A DNA stretch of 64,000 nucleotides from a virus (lineage: Duplodnaviria; Heunggongvirae; Uroviricota; Caudoviricetes), in the IMG/VR virus record IMGVR_UViG_2721755676_000001; one strand, 5' to 3'. Position numbers and translations under genes: made by a program. Positions 9,544-42,789 of this stretch are shown in pieces; the stretch's first letter is position 1; each line of letters opens with the position of its first letter. Below the pieces are notes generated by a model. It did not search any database. It was given only the letters and a program-made list of their open reading frames with translations, and was not told the origin of the DNA.

Positions 9544-10007
9544 AATACGATGCGCATCAGTTCAAACGTGCGGGGAATAGACTCAATAACAGCCAGAAAG
9601 CATTTAAGCGATATCTTATTCGGGACATGGAAAAGCTGGCGCGTTTGGTTGAGCGTCTCAGCCGTGCAATGGCCCCGCTGGAAACCGGATCTCTGGAGAC
9701 AGCCATCTTTGCCAGGGTGATTAAAGAAGGTTATTCAGGGCTGCGCATTGAGCTTTCTGTGTCTGGAGCAAAACCACGTCAGGGGCATCCGGGCGTAGAA
9801 GTCGGTGACTATGCTAAGTACATGGAGCTGGGTAAATACCGACTCGGTTATCTTTCTCGAATGAAGAACGTGACAAACCCACCAATTGCCGGTGTTAAAC
9901 CTCGTGTTGGGCCACACTTTCTGGAAAGAGCGGTGGAAATTAGCGAGAAGCAGTTCTCAGAAGCGATTCTTGAGGCTGCCAGAAAAGCCGGTTTTACGAG
10001 AGGTTAA
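9534..10007 (+). CDS. hypothetical protein (possible tail completion protein)
   Basis: ORF in head-tail joining region; synteny only. Confidence 0.45.
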   Translation: MGLKYDAHQFKRAGNRLNNSQKAFKRYLIRDMEKLARLVERLSRAMAPLETGSLETAIFARVIKEGYSGLRIELSVSGAKPRQGHPGVEVGDYAKYMELGKYRLGYLSRMKNVTNPPIAGVKPRVGPHFLERAVEISEKQFSEAILEAARKAGFTRG

Positions 10008-10008
10008 T

Positions 10009-10392
10009 GTGTTTATTGAAGCGTTTGCAAGTTTGATGCAGAAGGCAAAGATTGGCACGGTCGGGACTGACATTTTCTGTCACTACTTGCCTGCCAATGT
10101 GAAATCTGGCGTCCTGCTTATTAACCCAAATACCGGTATCAGCATCGATCATGAGCTACAGGGCTTTTACCACGAATCATTCACAATAATTGTGCGTGGT
10201 TCGTCAATTACTACGACGGTTGAGAAAGCCAATAAAATCATTGAGATGTTTCCAGTAGAGGAAACGGAATCTGGTGGTGTTTATTTTCGACTGGTACGAC
10301 CGATGGCGATGCCAATCATTTATCCCAAAAATGATGGAGCATTAATAGAAGCAGGCATTCCTGTTGAATTTGCTGGCTATTTATTGAATTAG
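10009..10392 (+). CDS. hypothetical protein (possible tail terminator), GTG start
   Basis: In-frame GTG at 10009 preceded by GAGAGG; longer track ORF from 9886 would overlap previous gene by 120 nt. Confidence 0.4.
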   Translation: MFIEAFASLMQKAKIGTVGTDIFCHYLPANVKSGVLLINPNTGISIDHELQGFYHESFTIIVRGSSITTTVEKANKIIEMFPVEETESGGVYFRLVRPMAMPIIYPKNDGALIEAGIPVEFAGYLLN

Positions 10393-10466: not shown

Positions 10467-11213
10467 ATGTCTAATACCCATGTAAAAAACATCAAACTTG
10501 GTGCCTGTAAGGTGTCGTTTGGTGGTGTGGATTTGGGTTACACCAAAGGTGGTGTTCAGGTTGAAATCGCAACCGAAACGCTGAAAGTGACCGTAGACCA
10601 GCTGGGCCAGACCACGATCTCCGAGCTGATCCAGGGCCGTAACATCACCATTACTGCGCCGCTGGCTGAATCCGTGTTGAAAAACATGGTCGATCTGATG
10701 CCAGGTTCCACGCTGAGTTCTGGCGAAGATATCGTAACCATCACGTCTGCGCAGGGAGTGAACCTGATCGACGTTGCGAAAGAGTTGGTGCTGACCCCGC
10801 AGGATGCGACGGATTATGTTCTGACCATCCCTAAAGCAGCAACCGCGGGTAACTTCACCATGACCTACCAGTCTGACGACGTTCGCGTGTTCTCAGTTGA
10901 GTTTTCCGCTTACCCGGACGACGCTGGCGTGTTGGGGAAAATGAGCCTCCCAAAGCCGGTTGAGAGCGTCACGCTGACCCCGTCTTCACCGACCGTAAAA
11001 GTGGGCACTAAAGTTCAATTGAGCGCAACCTTCACCCCGGCCGATGCAACCAATAAGACTGGCGTGTGGAGCTCTGATGCGACTGATAAAGCGACCGTAG
11101 ATCAGAACGGACTGGTAACTGGTAAAGCTGTCGGTTCAGCCAATATCACCTTCACAACTAATGACGGTGCCAAGAAGGCGACCAAAGCCGTCTCTGTAAC
11201 TGCCGCAAGCTAA
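10467..11213 (+). CDS. major tail protein with C-terminal Ig-like domain (lambda gpV-like architecture)
   Basis: ATG at 10467 with AAGGAG 10 nt upstream; C-terminal Big_2-like segment; position before G/GT chaperones and tape measure. Confidence 0.7.
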   Translation: MSNTHVKNIKLGACKVSFGGVDLGYTKGGVQVEIATETLKVTVDQLGQTTISELIQGRNITITAPLAESVLKNMVDLMPGSTLSSGEDIVTITSAQGVNLIDVAKELVLTPQDATDYVLTIPKAATAGNFTMTYQSDDVRVFSVEFSAYPDDAGVLGKMSLPKPVESVTLTPSSPTVKVGTKVQLSATFTPADATNKTGVWSSDATDKATVDQNGLVTGKAVGSANITFTTNDGAKKATKAVSVTAAS

Positions 11214-11274: not shown

Positions 11275-11592
11275 ATGACCAAATTACTCGATCTCGACTC
11301 CATTCTGCCGCCGAAAAAAAGCATCAAATTTGGTGGCAAAGAATATCCCATCGTTGAAATGACCGTCGGCCTCTTTGTTTCCATCAAGCAGATGGAAGGC
11401 AAAGATCTCATGAACATGACTCCTGTTGAGCAAGTGACAGCTTATGCAGATCTGGTTCGTAAGGTTATCCCTTCAGTACCTGACGAAGTTCTTGAAAAAC
11501 TGACTGTTCCGCAACTCCAGCAGATCTTCACCTTCGCTATGGAAGTGATTGATGAAGAAAACGAAAAAGCGGCTGGCGAAGGGGCAAAGTAA
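11275..11592 (+). CDS. tail assembly chaperone (lambda gpG-like)
   Basis: 105-aa acidic ORF between major tail and tape measure genes; AAGGA RBS. Confidence 0.6.
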   Translation: MTKLLDLDSILPPKKSIKFGGKEYPIVEMTVGLFVSIKQMEGKDLMNMTPVEQVTAYADLVRKVIPSVPDEVLEKLTVPQLQQIFTFAMEVIDEENEKAAGEGAK

Positions 11593-11672
11593 TTTCCCGC
11601 GATGAATCCGGGACAAGGACCGTCTCAATAGATCTCGGATTCTATTTCAGTCGTGTAGTTGCTCACTACGCC

Positions 11673-11942
11673 GTGTCGCCATTAGAGCTACTGAACGTTC
11701 CTCTCACGATGTTCTGGATGCTCAGTCGCAATATAGACCGTCTGCGTGCGGAAGAGGATGTCCGCAACTTACAAGTCGCTCGTGCGTCCCAGGCGGATGG
11801 CGAGGCTGTGAAGGCGTTCATGGAGGGTTTGCAACTCAGGATTGGAAGACCAGTCGTAACAGATAAAGTCTACGATCCAAGCCAGGATAAGGCAGACCCT
11901 GACGCCAAAGAGCAACTGATGCAAATATTTGGCAGAGGATGA
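11673..11942 (+). CDS. tail assembly chaperone frameshift extension (gpT-like; frame open from 11556)
   Basis: ORF in the -1 frame relative to the G-like gene; -1 frame is open from 11556 and overlaps the G gene's last 36 nt; ends just inside tape measure start. Confidence 0.5.
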   Translation: MSPLELLNVPLTMFWMLSRNIDRLRAEEDVRNLQVARASQADGEAVKAFMEGLQLRIGRPVVTDKVYDPSQDKADPDAKEQLMQIFGRG

Positions 11943-11949
11943 CAAGGGA

Positions 11950-14900
11950 ATGTCACAAAACGTAGAGTTTATCCTGTCGCTGGAAGACAAACAGTTTACA
12001 GCGTCAATCGATCGTGCGGGGAAACTGCTTACTCGATTTGGTGAGCAGGTAACAAAGCCTGCTCAAAAAATCCAAACCTTTGAACGCTCTTTGGGTTCGG
12101 TCGCCCGTATCATTGGCGTTCTGGAAAGCAAGCTCGATTCTACGGCAGATAAACTACAGGATGTAGCTGCCGGTTTTGAGCTTGCTTCAGATGCTACGCG
12201 TAAAATGCGTGGCAACATCACCAGCCTCAATTCTGGTCTTAAAGCCCTGATTGAGCGCGTCGATACGACAACTTCTTCAGTAGATAAACTCACCGCGTCA
12301 TTACGTAAAGTGCAATCAGAGCTAAATGATTTCTCTGATTGGGCGACCTATGCAAGCAAAAGCGCAAGCCGCTTTGGTACGGAGGTCAAAGAAGCCTCTG
12401 CGTCCGTGAGTGGCATGAATACGCGCCTTAATACCACGACGAAGCGACTCAGTAATTGGGGTGTCACAACGAGTCAGGCTGCCGAGGGACTGAAAAAGGT
12501 TCGTGAGCAGATGGACGAAGTTATCGGACGTCAGCAACTGATTAGCAAGCCGGTACGCGTTCGTACATCTGGAAGTGGCGATGGTGGCAGCGGGCGGCGT
12601 AGCGGCTCTGGCCATAGCGATAAAAGTAACGAAGGAGGTATGTTCTCTGGCCTTCGTGGCAACATTTTCCTGCTTGGCGAGATCGGAGATGCAGCCAGAA
12701 CGGTTACTGACATCATGTTTGGGTGGCAGAAGCCTATTGTTGAAGCTGCGGCCGAAATGGAACGTATGCGGGTGATGCTTCGAGGGTTGAATAAGGAGAA
12801 GTCCAACCCGGGCCAGGCTGCCGCTGATGATATGAAGTACATCGTAGACATGGCTCAAAATGCGCCGTTCGCGATGCAGGCGTTAACAGATTCCTTCGTG
12901 AAGTTTCGTTCTGCTGGCTTAGATCCAACCGATGGCTCTCTGAAGGCGCTGGTGGACTCCGTTGCTCGTTTTGGTGGTGATAGTGAGCTGTTGAAACGTG
13001 CGGCTGTGGCCGTTCAGCAGATGTCCGGTAAGGGCGTCGTGTCAATGGAAGAGCTACGTCAGCAATTAGGTGAAGCCGTTCCTAACGCGATGCAGGCAAT
13101 GGCAGACGCCGCAGGCATCACTATGGGGGAACTGACTAAAGCCGTTGCCAGCGGTACGGTTGAGGCAAAACAGGCGTTGTCTCTGATGTTTGTTGGTCTG
13201 CGTGCGGAGAATGAGAACGCAGCGAAAGACATGATGCAAACCTACACAGGTGCGCTGGCGCAACTTCAGACGTCATTCACGTTATTTGCTGATCGGGTTG
13301 GTCAGGCCGGATATCTGGATTCTCTATCGAAGGGGATGAAAGAACTGGCTTCAATCATGAATAGCGCCGAAGGGATTTCGTTTGCCAATTCTTTAGGTTC
13401 GGGGTTAACAACGGCAATCGATGGGTTGCGTCAGCTTGCTCAATGGTTAGCAAAGAACCAAGAGCTGGTAATTAATCTCGGTAAGGTCGTGGCCGCGATG
13501 GTTGCGTTCAAACTGATGCGAGCATGGATCATGGGGGTAGTTGGCGCTGGGAGCCAGATGGTTAGCACCTTTGCCACGATGGCGACCGCCATACAGACTC
13601 CATTTAACCTCGGCGCTACAGCAGTAACTCGATTCAATCGTGCGGCACGTATGGGGCTGGCTCCGATCCCCTCTCTTATTTTCGCCATCCGTGGGGCGAT
13701 TACGGGGCTTAAAGGCGCTTTTGCTGGCCTGACTGCGTTTATTGCGGCGAATCCGATAGGTTTTGTTTTCACTGCTGCAATGACCGCTGTTGCTGGCTTA
13801 ATCACGTATATGACCATGCTTCGTAGCGAAACTTCAAAGGTCGTTGACGAGATTAGGAAAATACCAGAAGCGATGACGGCGGCTAAACGTGCACAGATGG
13901 CCGAGTATAAAGCGCGTCTTGAGCAACAAATCACGCAAAAGGAACAAGAGTTAAAATCTGGCGAAAAGGTGGTTTATGGGCCGGGTATGGCCGGAACTAC
14001 AGTAAAGATTAATCATGATGAACGTAAGCGAATAGAAAATGAGCTAAATGAACTTCGTAAGAAACGCGATAAAACCAATGAAACTATTGCCAGAGGGGAT
14101 TTGGCTGTAGCCAAACGTCTGGCAAAAGAGACGGCAGAATCCCAGATAGAGAAAATACTCGAAGAGAATAGAGACTTTGCGGCAACGTTCGTGAAAGCTC
14201 GTCAGGAGGCTCTGGAGAAAATCCAGAAAATCAAGGATGACGGTTCACTTTCGGATGACGAAAAGAACAAGCTATTGGCACCGTTACGTGAAACGGTAAA
14301 CAAAAGCTATCTGGAGCCTGCGCAAAAACTGGTTGATTCACTTTCTTCTCGTAAGAATGCGACCGAGAAGCAAATCGCGACTCTTAATGATCAGCTTGAA
14401 AAAGCGAAAAAGGAAGGAAATACCGAGCAGATTCAGAAACTGCAAGGAAGTATTCGTGGCTATCAGGAGCATTTGGAAGTCGTTGCTCAGGAACTGACTC
14501 AGGCAGAGTTTAAGAGGGATAACGCGGCCAAAAGTGGTAATGGCTTAGTGTCAATCAATGGAGATGTTCTGGGGTTAGGTACAACTGATAAAGCTGCTCA
14601 GAAGGCGCTGGCGCAATATATGCGAAACCAGATGGATTCTGCGACTTATCAGCGTACTTTGCCTGACGGCACTCCGATGATGGACTTCGAAGGTAAGCCG
14701 ATTATTGGGCCTAAACAACTCAAGACGCAGCTTAATTTGCAGAAAGCATCCAGCGCCAGCTCTCTGGAGAAAATGAGCGATGAAGAGCGTGCCGCAGCCA
14801 TTGCTGCACTAACTAAAGCTCGTGAACAGGATGCAGCAGCTGCCGAGAAAGCAGCCCAACGATCAGCTAACGCCTCGCAGCGTGCGGCCAAGAAGGAACA

Positions 14901-16506
14901 GGCAGCGCAACAGAAACTGGCAGCCGGATACCAGAAGGCTCTGGACAAAGCCGATCAGCTTATGGGGCAAATGGGTGAAAGCTCTAAGGCTACGGTATCG
15001 TTTGATCAGTCTCTTCGCGATACAACGAAATCGCTGACAGATTTGGCTAATGCGGTTCCTAACGAGTTCATCACTCAAGAGATGATCGACAAGGCGAAAA
15101 AACGTCTTGAAGACCTCAAAAATGCGACACCTGAATATCGCGAGATGTTTAATCGCCGCAATGTTGAGCAGATGATCTCCACTTGGGCACCGGAGGCGGA
15201 TTCCATTATTAGTGCTGGCTATACGCCGTCTCGCGAAGAGAAAGTTGCTGATTTCGAAGACACCTACAACCGCAATCTCAAAGCGTTGATAGAACTTCGT
15301 GATAAGGCGTCTGATCCTAAAGTTGTGGCGCTTTATACAAAGAAAATCAATCAACTGATTGCTGCTGGCAATACCGCGCTTATTAAAGAGACGGGGACTG
15401 CGACGCAGAAGTTGGCACTGGAATACGAAAACCTGGCAGAGCAGATCGAAAGCACCTGGACTGATTTGTTTAGTGGCTTAACTGATGTCCTGACTGATTT
15501 CGTTATTAACGGGAAGATGAGCTTCTCCAGCCTATCTCAGTCCATTTTGAAAGATATCACCAATATGGTCGTGAAGTCGCAGATCACGCTGCCTCTAATG
15601 AACATGTTGGGGATGGGAACCACCGCAGCTGGTAGTTCACAGAGTGGTAATTTGCTGACCGGGGTTGCTTCCGCCGTTGCCAATCAAGGGGTACGAATGG
15701 GCAACACTGTTAACGGCGACAAGTCGGTAGGAGAAGCCACGAAGGAGACGTCCAGTTCGGTAACTGGATTGGGGCAAACAACACAGCAGACCACCAGCGC
15801 AATTGGCACTGCAACAAATGCGATTGGTAGCTGGGTATCAGGGCTATTTGATAGCACTGAAGCCAAAGATGCCGAGACAAAAGCCGTGAAGGACTCCATC
15901 TTCTCGATGCAGAACCTCAGCTCTGTTACCGGCGCGCTGTCTGCCGCGTTTGCAATGCTTGGAGCTAATGCTTCCGGCTCTGGTAATAAGTGGTTGAGTT
16001 TTGGAGCAACGGTTGCATCTGGTCTTGTTTCAGCTTGGGCTGGCGGTGGTTTCGACAGCGTGACATCAAGCTCTGCTAAAACCGCAACCAGCAGTGTGGC
16101 TGACGGAACTAAAGGCATTCCTGCAATCCCGAAGTTTGCAAATGGAGGAATATTCGGAAAAGACGGCGTGATCCCGCTCCGTGCATACCAGAAAGGCGGT
16201 ATTGCTAACTCGCCTCAATTAGCGTTGTTTGGGGAAGGTTCTATGAATGAGGCGTATGTTCCATTGCCTGATGGCCGAACAATCCCTGTAACGCTCAGTA
16301 CCGATGGTATGAGTGGAGGCGGAAATGTTCTTTCTCCTGTATCAATTGAGATCAACGTCCATAGTGACGGTAGCACGACAGAATCCGGCGATACAGAAAG
16401 CATATGGAACAATGCCGCTCAACGGATGAAAGCAATCGCGCTTGAGACTATCGCTCAAGAGAAACGCCCTGGCGGATCACTCAACCCAAACACTCAACGT
16501 AACTAA
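11950..16506 (+). CDS. tail tape measure protein
   Basis: ~1500-aa mostly helical/coiled-coil protein after G/GT chaperones; ATG at 11950 (track ORF starts at TTG 11929). Confidence 0.85.
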   Translation: MSQNVEFILSLEDKQFTASIDRAGKLLTRFGEQVTKPAQKIQTFERSLGSVARIIGVLESKLDSTADKLQDVAAGFELASDATRKMRGNITSLNSGLKALIERVDTTTSSVDKLTASLRKVQSELNDFSDWATYASKSASRFGTEVKEASASVSGMNTRLNTTTKRLSNWGVTTSQAAEGLKKVREQMDEVIGRQQLISKPVRVRTSGSGDGGSGRRSGSGHSDKSNEGGMFSGLRGNIFLLGEIGDAARTVTDIMFGWQKPIVEAAAEMERMRVMLRGLNKEKSNPGQAAADDMKYIVDMAQNAPFAMQALTDSFVKFRSAGLDPTDGSLKALVDSVARFGGDSELLKRAAVAVQQMSGKGVVSMEELRQQLGEAVPNAMQAMADAAGITMGELTKAVASGTVEAKQALSLMFVGLRAENENAAKDMMQTYTGALAQLQTSFTLFADRVGQAGYLDSLSKGMKELASIMNSAEGISFANSLGSGLTTAIDGLRQLAQWLAKNQELVINLGKVVAAMVAFKLMRAWIMGVVGAGSQMVSTFATMATAIQTPFNLGATAVTRFNRAARMGLAPIPSLIFAIRGAITGLKGAFAGLTAFIAANPIGFVFTAAMTAVAGLITYMTMLRSETSKVVDEIRKIPEAMTAAKRAQMAEYKARLEQQITQKEQELKSGEKVVYGPGMAGTTVKINHDERKRIENELNELRKKRDKTNETIARGDLAVAKRLAKETAESQIEKILEENRDFAATFVKARQEALEKIQKIKDDGSLSDDEKNKLLAPLRETVNKSYLEPAQKLVDSLSSRKNATEKQIATLNDQLEKAKKEGNTEQIQKLQGSIRGYQEHLEVVAQELTQAEFKRDNAAKSGNGLVSINGDVLGLGTTDKAAQKALAQYMRNQMDSATYQRTLPDGTPMMDFEGKPIIGPKQLKTQLNLQKASSASSLEKMSDEERAAAIAALTKAREQDAAAAEKAAQRSANASQRAAKKEQAAQQKLAAGYQKALDKADQLMGQMGESSKATVSFDQSLRDTTKSLTDLANAVPNEFITQEMIDKAKKRLEDLKNATPEYREMFNRRNVEQMISTWAPEADSIISAGYTPSREEKVADFEDTYNRNLKALIELRDKASDPKVVALYTKKINQLIAAGNTALIKETGTATQKLALEYENLAEQIESTWTDLFSGLTDVLTDFVINGKMSFSSLSQSILKDITNMVVKSQITLPLMNMLGMGTTAAGSSQSGNLLTGVASAVANQGVRMGNTVNGDKSVGEATKETSSSVTGLGQTTQQTTSAIGTATNAIGSWVSGLFDSTEAKDAETKAVKDSIFSMQNLSSVTGALSAAFAMLGANASGSGNKWLSFGATVASGLVSAWAGGGFDSVTSSSAKTATSSVADGTKGIPAIPKFANGGIFGKDGVIPLRAYQKGGIANSPQLALFGEGSMNEAYVPLPDGRTIPVTLSTDGMSGGGNVLSPVSIEINVHSDGSTTESGDTESIWNNAAQRMKAIALETIAQEKRPGGSLNPNTQRN

Positions 16507-42054: not shown

Positions 42055-42126
42055 GATGGTGTAGCTCAGCGGTAGAGCAGTTGGCTGTTAACCAACTGGT
42101 CGGTGGTTCGAATCCACCCACCATCG
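42055..42126 (+). tRNA. tRNA-Asn (anticodon GTT)
   Basis: Cloverleaf folded by hand: acceptor GATGGTG/CACCATC, anticodon loop CTGTTAA, T-arm GGTGG-TTCGAAT-CCACC, discriminator G then CCA. Confidence 0.85.
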
Positions 42127-42134
42127 CCAATTTA

Positions 42135-42218
42135 GGGGAGTTAGTCCGTAGGGGCAGCGGAGTAGACTGTAAATCTACTGTCATGGCGACTCGGGTGGTT
42201 CGACTCCATCACTCCCCA
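42135..42218 (+). tRNA. tRNA-Tyr (anticodon GTA), long variable arm
   Basis: Acceptor GGGGAGT/ACTCCCC, anticodon stem GTAGA/TCTAC with loop CTGTAAA, long variable arm, TTCGACT T-loop, CCA encoded. Confidence 0.8.
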
Positions 42219-42225
42219 CCAAATT

Positions 42226-42298
42226 GCCGGTTTAGCTCAGTTGGTAGAGCGCCTGCCTTGTAAGCAGGATGTCAGCGGTTCGAGTCCGCTAACCGGCA
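42226..42298 (+). tRNA. tRNA-Thr (anticodon TGT)
   Basis: Acceptor GCCGGTT/AACCGGC, D-arm GCTC-AGTTGGTA-GAGC, anticodon loop CTTGTAA, T-arm AGCGG-TTCGAGT-CCGCT, CCA encoded. Confidence 0.85.
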
Positions 42299-42525
42299 CC
42301 AATACAACGATAAGATCATTACGGTTAATCGTCGTTCATGTGCACAATGACTGGTCGAAAGGTAGTGATCTTACCGTTGTGGTGGATTCGCAGACTGATG
42401 CGATAGCTTTCTTGGATGTTAGGGAAATGCGGCCGCAAATCTTCCCTTTCGCGAGCGGTGATCGTCCGTAGTCCTAATTGGCTGCACCGTATGCCGGAGA
42501 TTCAGTACCGGCCACCACAACGGCC

Positions 42526-42609
42526 GGAGAGTAGGGAGCATGGTGCTCAAGCGGTCTTGAAAACCGTCCCATTGCGCAAGCGATGATGGTTCGATTCCAT
42601 TACTCTCCG
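42526..42609 (+). tRNA. tRNA-Ser (anticodon TGA), long variable arm
   Basis: Acceptor GGAGAGT/ACTCTCC, anticodon loop CTTGAAA, long variable arm, T-loop TTCGATT, discriminator G, CCA encoded. Confidence 0.7.
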
Positions 42610-42789
42610 CCAGACACAGCGTTGAGCGGTTTGGCCTTTTAATCACCCAGATTAAGACTCCGCTAACATAAACCAGACCGCTCAACGCTGTGATAGACAA
42701 TTACGGCAGACGTTCTTAACCATAGCTTGCTAACATCCTAGCAACACTTTTTTCAGCGCAAAATTCAAAGGGGCTTCGGCCCCTTTTTG

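Follow-up and report, generated by a model that had tools for sequence, protein, structure and literature searches.

A programmed −1 ribosomal frameshift is the probable link between two tail assembly chaperone frames in an SSU5-like phage-plasmid

Two overlapping reading frames in the tail gene cluster of an SSU5-like phage-plasmid are, with a probability that we put at about 0.86, joined by a programmed −1 ribosomal frameshift at A_AAG, so that a short G and a long GT chaperone would be made from one start. A frameshift of the G/GT type had been proposed from a sequence-only reading of this DNA, and it is supported by four lines of evidence: the position of the two frames among the tail genes, an invariant slip site in close relatives, conserved coding of the −1 frame from the slip site onward, and canonical slippery heptamers at the same place in remote homologues. 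The arrangement has been unannotated until now. The class of frameshift to which it belongs is well known, and its slip site is slightly unusual in being minimal. A literature search found no paper on an SSU5 frameshift or on a fusion protein in SSU5-like phages.

Genomic setting and arrangement of the two frames

The window, as we call the whole stretch of 64,000 nucleotides that was analysed, is an SSU5-like phage-plasmid. The region of interest shares 91-97% nucleotide identity with Escherichia phages Cyrano and CMS-2020a, Klebsiella phage pJN2-26 and Salmonella phage SSU5. Of 5,426 complete E. coli genomes, 231 have the locus on plasmids, one plasmid copy being 100% identical over 676 nt, and it is also present in Klebsiella, Salmonella, Kluyvera and Yersinia pestis. 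The cassette of the two frames recurs at 96% G-protein identity on a contig of ~108 kb from Y. pestis NCTC5923 (L086) and in Kluyvera (L087, L088), and at 69% in Photorhabdus asymbiotica (L090, L091), which indicates that the tail module is widely spread among enterobacterial plasmid-like elements.

Gene order, as assigned with Pfam, is of the lambda type: a tail terminator, a major tail protein with a Big_2 domain, G, T, a tape measure protein, and then gpM, gpL and gpK. The two chaperone frames, the elements around the shift site, and the major tail protein and tape measure genes are all on the + strand. The tail terminator spans 10006-10389 (PF12691) and the major tail protein, with its C-terminal Big_2 Ig-like domain, 10467-11213 (alternative start 10431; Pfam Big_2 E 4.9e-23, in agreement with the SSU5 and Cyrano annotations). 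The tape measure gene occupies 11950-16506 (Pfam TMP_3 E 4.3e-27, Tape_meas_lam_C E 6.1e-13), and its ATG at 11950 is preceded by AAGGGA. Lambda-like phages encode their G and GT chaperones between the major tail protein and tape measure genes, and it is in this interval that the two frames of the window are found.

The G-like gene (11275-11592) encodes a 0-frame product of 105 amino acids (11.7 kDa) and ends with GCA (11584-86), AAG (11587-89) and TAA (11590-92). The −1 frame is closed upstream by a TGA at 11553-11555, is open from 11556 and runs to its own TGA at 11940-42. Both the ending GCA-AAG-TAA at 11584-11592 and the opening of the −1 frame at 11556 had been described before, and both can be read directly from the sequence; the overlap, given earlier as 36 nt, exists and comes to 37 nt when the stop codon is counted, a trivial difference. 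The T segment (11589-11942, 117 amino acids and the TGA) has no start of its own, and is predicted only as the C-terminal part of a GT fusion. This predicted protein, join(11275..11589,11589..11942), would have 222 amino acids and 24.9 kDa, with EGAK of the G frame followed directly by VISRDESG of the −1 frame at the junction.

The letters at the junction say little by themselves. The window has 25 copies of AAAGTAR where chance would give 18.4, so that the motif alone carries no weight, and a stop-free stretch of 39 codons is likewise not rare by chance. The observation gains its weight from where it lies and from how well it is conserved. The GenBank/RefSeq records checked always carry two separate hypothetical-protein coding sequences, with no joined feature. 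Database gene calls for the T frame use eight different starts, giving products of 74 to 116 amino acids that are always named 'hypothetical protein', and among the calls returned for this frame there is no entry of ~222 amino acids, the length of the G-T fusion.

Scans of G, T and GT against Pfam and NCBIfam gave no match to a chaperone family. In PHROGs, G matches phrog_893 and T matches phrog_1131, both listed as 'unknown function'. The match to phrog_1131 is restricted to residues 45-128 of the −1 frame, which points to a family built from N-terminally truncated gene calls. Profiles of G and T aligned to lambda G and T with hhalign gave probabilities below 1%, that is, no similarity, and Phage_TAC_7 was matched weakly by 2 of the 63 G family members scanned. 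The structure model of G bears a moderate resemblance to annotated tail assembly chaperones, and that of T gave no informative fold match. The labels 'G-like' and 'T-like' used in the sequence-only reading are thus upheld by position, by the frameshift architecture and by the moderate fold match of G, but not by sequence similarity to lambda G or T. Taken together, the data indicate that a tail assembly chaperone pair is represented by these two families, its G part by phrog_893 and its T part by phrog_1131.

Coding in the −1 frame upstream of any start codon

Related loci were gathered from phage records, IMG/VR, GTDB genomes and assemblies; among the 97 loci there are 49 unique sequences in the region of the G stop, with identities of 60-99% for the G protein. 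The −1 frame can be shown to code for protein from the codon overlapping the G stop onward. From the G stop to the first conserved ATG, a stretch of 44 codons, 30 unique sequences differ by a minimum of 28, 13 and 65 substitutions at codon positions 1, 2 and 3, respectively, and by one in-frame indel of 3 nt; the 0 frame over the same codons contains 135 stops across the 30 sequences.

The first start codons available to the −1 frame are GTG 11673, ATG 11709 and ATG 11718, none of which is preceded by a Shine-Dalgarno sequence. From the G stop to the first of them, 28 codons evolve as protein in the −1 frame. Read from GTA at 11589, the −1-frame peptide begins VISRDESG(T/V)(R/K)TVSIDLGFYFSRVVAHYAVSP..., and within the whole downstream frame conservation is highest in this N-terminal stretch; the conserved peptide VISRDESG..SIDLGFYFSRVVAHY lies wholly upstream of any start codon. 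The second frame thus overlaps the first, is coding from the overlap onward and has neither a start nor a ribosome-binding site of its own, as in the G/GT class.

Coding that begins at the G stop would be explained equally well if T were made separately, either by termination-reinitiation or from a non-canonical AUU start at 11592-94 that overlaps the TAA, with AAGGGG helping and no fusion being formed. The window does contain the sequence AAGGGG-N7-AUU. However, neither element is conserved: AUU is AUA, AUC or GUU in relatives (GUU in the TAG variants), and AAGGGG gives way to GAAGAAG, GAAGACG or GACGACG, while what is conserved instead is AAG and the A upstream of it. Remote homologues, described below, carry canonical heptamers and a hairpin at the same place, a combination that is sensible only for frameshifting. 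We therefore regard separate synthesis of T as improbable, even if it fares best among the alternatives to a programmed shift.

Still less credible is an independent start of the downstream frame at GTG 11673, ATG 11709 or ATG 11718, by which 11593-11672 would be a non-coding spacer and the overlap fortuitous. The two separate hypothetical proteins of the GenBank/RefSeq annotations would agree with such a start, as would the coverage of residues 45-128 only by phrog_1131. Yet the supposed spacer shows a strong third-position substitution bias and an in-frame indel, and contains the most conserved T peptide. The codon at GTG 11673 is lost in several relatives, being GTA in pJN2-26 and encoding Ile in L091, L092 and L094, and no candidate start has a Shine-Dalgarno sequence before it. 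Gene callers disagree on where T begins (74 to 116 amino acids), and the best-predicted part of the T structure model is residues 1-60.

Slip site, remote homologues and downstream stem-loop

The shift site of the window is G_GCA_AAG (11583-11589), within which only the A-site tetramer A_AAG (11586-11589) permits cognate re-pairing of tRNA-Lys, from AAG in the 0 frame to AAA in the −1 frame. The overlap of the two frames therefore contains a conserved slippery sequence of the tetranucleotide class at 11586-89, a tetramer and not the full X_XXY_YYZ heptamer. Directly 3' of it is the 0-frame stop TAA (11590-11592), a 'shifty stop' context that is kept as TAA or TAG in 49 of 49 relatives. The whole of [C/T]A_AAG followed by TAA or TAG is invariant in these 49 unique sequences. 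The A that precedes AAG is the synonymous third position of two different codons (GCA and GTA), yet it never changes, and among the relatives the Ala and Gly codons next to it occur in three or four synonymous forms.

In most relatives, SSU5 included, the −1 frame has a TGA (inside GGT GAA) 10 nt before the G stop, which confines the frame change in these sequences to GGG/GAG/GAA/GAC, GCA/GTA and AAG. The comparative data support A_AAG as the place of the putative shift. The earlier suggestion of tRNA-Lys slipping on A_AAG is supported by the invariance of A_AAG-TA(A/G) in the 49 relatives, by the narrowing of the permitted interval to 10 nt and by the heptamers at the same place in remote loci.

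A shift elsewhere in the 37-nt overlap of the window is as doubtful as an independent start. The −1 frame of the window is open from 11556, and on the A-run GAA_AAA_G (11563-69) a tRNA-Lys on AAA 11566-68 could re-pair on AAA 11565-67. In SSU5 and most relatives, however, the −1-frame TGA lies downstream of this run, and a shift there would terminate at once; diverged relatives have GAAGCC or GAAGCA in its stead. The −1-frame TGA and the lack of conservation rule out GAA_AAA_G as the slip site.

Several other features around A_AAG were considered. The Shine-Dalgarno-like AAGGGG (11579-84), which lies 1 nt before the slip site and 7 nt before the AUU at 11592, is restricted to the clade of E. 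coli, Klebsiella and Salmonella, the other relatives having the three replacements given above. As a stimulator of the −1 shift it is rejected, since it is not conserved and is too close for an action of the dnaX type, and the 49 relatives have no conserved Shine-Dalgarno-like sequence 10-14 nt upstream of the slip site. Synonymous diversity, in a scan that is not normalised for codon degeneracy and is supportive only, has a trough around the slip site. A second and deeper trough is seen at ~11805-11850 (T codons ~76-90, KAFMEGLQLRIG), some 100-145 nt before the tape measure gene begins; its values are 0.02-0.09, the mean being 0.25, and it may reflect an RNA element, a recombination tract or an artefact of low degeneracy. 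A search of viral contigs did not find the nearest outgroups, P0154 and P0156, which stand at 39-49% identity and whose C-termini (..EEAK) suggest the same GCx-AAG ending.

A profile search with G returned 427 cluster representatives, and all of the 63 that were scanned (63/63) fall in phrog_893. The remote set that was analysed comprises 32 IMG/VR loci, L099-L129 among them. The distance is illustrated by L101, where G has 30% identity to that of the window (E 2e-14) and the −1-frame T 40% (E 3e-20). In 32 of the 32 remote loci, the T homologue lies in the −1 frame, and its motif E-E-I/L-D-F-G-F-L/F-F-C-R-V is the counterpart of SIDLGFYFSRV in the window. Alignment with related phages, which had been named as a check on the proposal, thus finds the overlap of two frames in all 49 unique relatives and the −1-frame T in the 32 remote loci.

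A canonical −1 heptamer stands directly before the G stop in 28 of the 32 remote loci: G_GGA_AAG (n=4), G_GGA_AAC (n=13) or A_AAA_AAG (n=11). A bipartite hairpin begins 8 nt after the heptamer, with minimum free energy z-scores mostly of −3 to −5. Its lower stem is approximately CCGGCA/UGCCGG, and its upper stem GAGGAAAUCG/CGGUUUCUUC is capped by a tetraloop. In the upper helix, 97% of cells are paired, and a C-G pair switches to A-U at 12:7, an Ile/Leu codon on one arm varying together with GGU/GGG on the other; the covariation score of this helix was reached by 0 of 500 shuffles. Heptamers, an adjacent stop and a covarying hairpin are hallmarks of programmed −1 frameshifting.

That a once single G-T gene has been split by a frameshift mutation, by decay into a pseudogene or by a sequencing error, or that the fusion arises by transcriptional slippage (for which the run of 6-7 A in the remote A_AAA_AAG could in principle suffice), is barely conceivable, since the same two-frame arrangement recurs in 49 unique relatives, 231 complete E. 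coli genomes and 32 remote loci, and the site in the window has three consecutive A only, too few for polymerase slippage.

In the window, a candidate stimulatory stem-loop (11598-11655), which the sequence-only reading had not described, was identified from folding, from the conservation of its pairing and from the equally spaced hairpin of the remote loci. It too is bipartite, with a lower stem at 11598-11603/11650-11655, an upper stem at 11604-11611/11635-11642 and a loop of 23 nt. Like the remote hairpin, it starts 8 nt after the slip site, and its 3' arms fall on codons homologous to those that carry the 3' arms of the remote one (LGF and SR). The predicted fold of −17.9 kcal/mol is, with z of −1.26 to −1.28, statistically unexceptional on its own. 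The upper stem can pair in 24 of 24 distinct close-relative sequences (100%); the changes observed there are three one-sided, compatible ones and one compensatory change from U-A to G-C in Photorhabdus, and the observed score was reached by 1 of 500 shuffles. Conservation of the stem-loop is confounded with protein-coding constraint. Because the single-sequence fold is unremarkable and the conservation is entangled with coding, we call the stem-loop only a probable stimulator of the shift, acting alongside the stop codon. A search of positions 11400-11800 against Rfam gave no match to any family at E<=1.

Proposed mechanism, significance and comparison with known systems

In the mechanism that we propose, most ribosomes would decode ...GGG GCA AAG and terminate at TAA 11590-92, releasing the 105-residue G. 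A minority would slip back by one base when the tRNA-Lys on AAG (11587-89) re-pairs with AAA (11586-88); with GTA (11589-91) as the next codon, they would then read the −1 frame to TGA 11940-42 and produce the 222-residue GT. Slow decoding of the adjacent stop codon probably promotes the slip, as probably does the bipartite stem-loop at 11598-11655. Enterobacteria have a single species of tRNA-Lys, with the anticodon mnm5s2UUU, which pairs weakly with AAG. The window encodes a cluster of four tRNAs at 42055-42612 on the + strand (Asn-GTT, Tyr-GTA, Thr-TGT and Ser-TGA). A tRNA-Lys gene is not encoded in the window, so no phage tRNA would interfere at the slip site.

On the lambda model, the tape measure protein would be coated with many G and few GT molecules, bound to it by G and by the G part of GT; the T part would recruit the major tail protein, and neither G nor GT would be retained in the virion. 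We infer the occurrence and the efficiency of slippage, the ribosomal site (A or P) of the slipping tRNA, and the chaperone functions of G and T.

A similar sequence is found in the neighbouring major tail protein gene. In L092 (1184-1194), and also in L093, L094 and L095, a major tail protein frame of 163 amino acids ends GCC CCA AAG TAA, that is, with C_CCA_AAG and a stop, and the −1 frame carries on into a Big_2 Ig-like domain (PKVSVTGVTVAPASV...), an arrangement conserved in three unique sequences. The Ig domain of L092-L095 seems to be added by a −1 shift on this 'A_AAG-TAA' cassette. The window has the tube and Ig domains of its major tail protein in one in-frame reading frame (compare 10949-10963), with a shift-prone C_CCA_AAG in frame at 10949-10955, exactly at the boundary between the two domains. 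A −1 slip on it would stop translation 4 codons later (TGA 10961-63), leaving a tail tube protein that lacks the Ig domain; the heptamer here may be incidental. Other clades have the non-slippery CCT AAA at the boundary.

A more detailed scenario is speculative, and we consider it unlikely as a whole. In the SSU5 clade, the canonical heptamer of the family would have been reduced to a minimal A_AAG that abuts the stop. The shift would then rely mainly on slippage of a single tRNA, the peptidyl-tRNA-Lys in the P site, with release factors as kinetic competitors, and the same 'A_AAG-UAA' cassette would also append the Ig-like domain to the major tail protein of L092-L095. If slippage does compete with release factors in the P site, the ratio of G to GT, and hence tail assembly, would be tied to termination efficiency and to the growth state of the cell. 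If the cassette is shared, it would be a reusable recoding module within one tail gene cluster.

For the programmed shift itself, the consequences are mainly of two kinds. The finding corrects the annotation of a widespread element, in which both frames are 'hypothetical' with inconsistent starts in every record checked, and recognition of the frames as a G/GT pair assigns a function to two PHROG families. In addition, a natural A_AAG site with an adjacent stop now stands beside canonical heptamers in one protein family; this comparative series for frameshift efficiency could show how heptamer degeneracy, the adjacent stop and the hairpin jointly set that efficiency. The general picture of tail assembly is unchanged.

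Classic, well-studied natural cases of a 'shifty stop', such as prfB, are +1 shifts. The site in the window resembles 'shifty stop' frameshifting (Weiss et al. 1987, as cited in PMC5009743) in that a stop lies directly 3' of the slippery codon, where slow termination would be expected to favour slippage of the peptidyl-tRNA.

That A_AAG is a shifty site in E. coli, as the sequence-only reading stated, agrees with published reporter work provided that a stimulator is present: A_AAG is the most shift-prone Z_ZZN tetramer in E. coli, but stays at background level alone, and the 5.6% that it reached required a strong pseudoknot (PMC4066793). IS1222 (G_CGA_AAG) and B. subtilis cdd (A_CGA_AAG) contain natural A_AAG sites, and the 5' codon affects efficiency (PMC5009743). 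The window is like these two sites (Sharma et al. 2014, PMC4066793) in that only the A-site tRNA-Lys can re-pair cognately and a flanking stimulator would be needed. It differs from them in its context, a phage tail chaperone gene, in its 5' codon, which is GCA here and GCA or GTA among its relatives, and in the stop immediately 3'.

A close mechanistic parallel is with lambda G/GT, as far as the summary in PMC5009743 describes it (Levin, Hendrix & Casjens 1993; Xu, Hendrix & Duda 2004, 2013, 2014). Common to both are two overlapping frames in the interval from the major tail protein to the tape measure gene, a second frame in −1 without a start, tRNA-Lys on AAG near the end of G, and the expectation of a short product and a long fusion. 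Apart from the absence of detectable similarity in the G and T sequences, the window differs from lambda in having G_GCA_AAG, in which the tetramer only is slippery, where lambda has G_GGA_AAG. It also differs in having its slip codon as the last sense codon, with the stop directly after, and in its conserved downstream stem-loop.

The remote members of phrog_893 and phrog_1131 (L099-L129) share with the window the −1 architecture, a slip site that abuts the stop and a hairpin 8 nt downstream, whose 3' arms lie on the G-F and C/S-R codons in the remote members as they do in the window. In contrast to the canonical heptamers and compact tetraloop hairpin of these remote relatives, the SSU5 clade has a degenerate heptamer and a loop of 23 nt.
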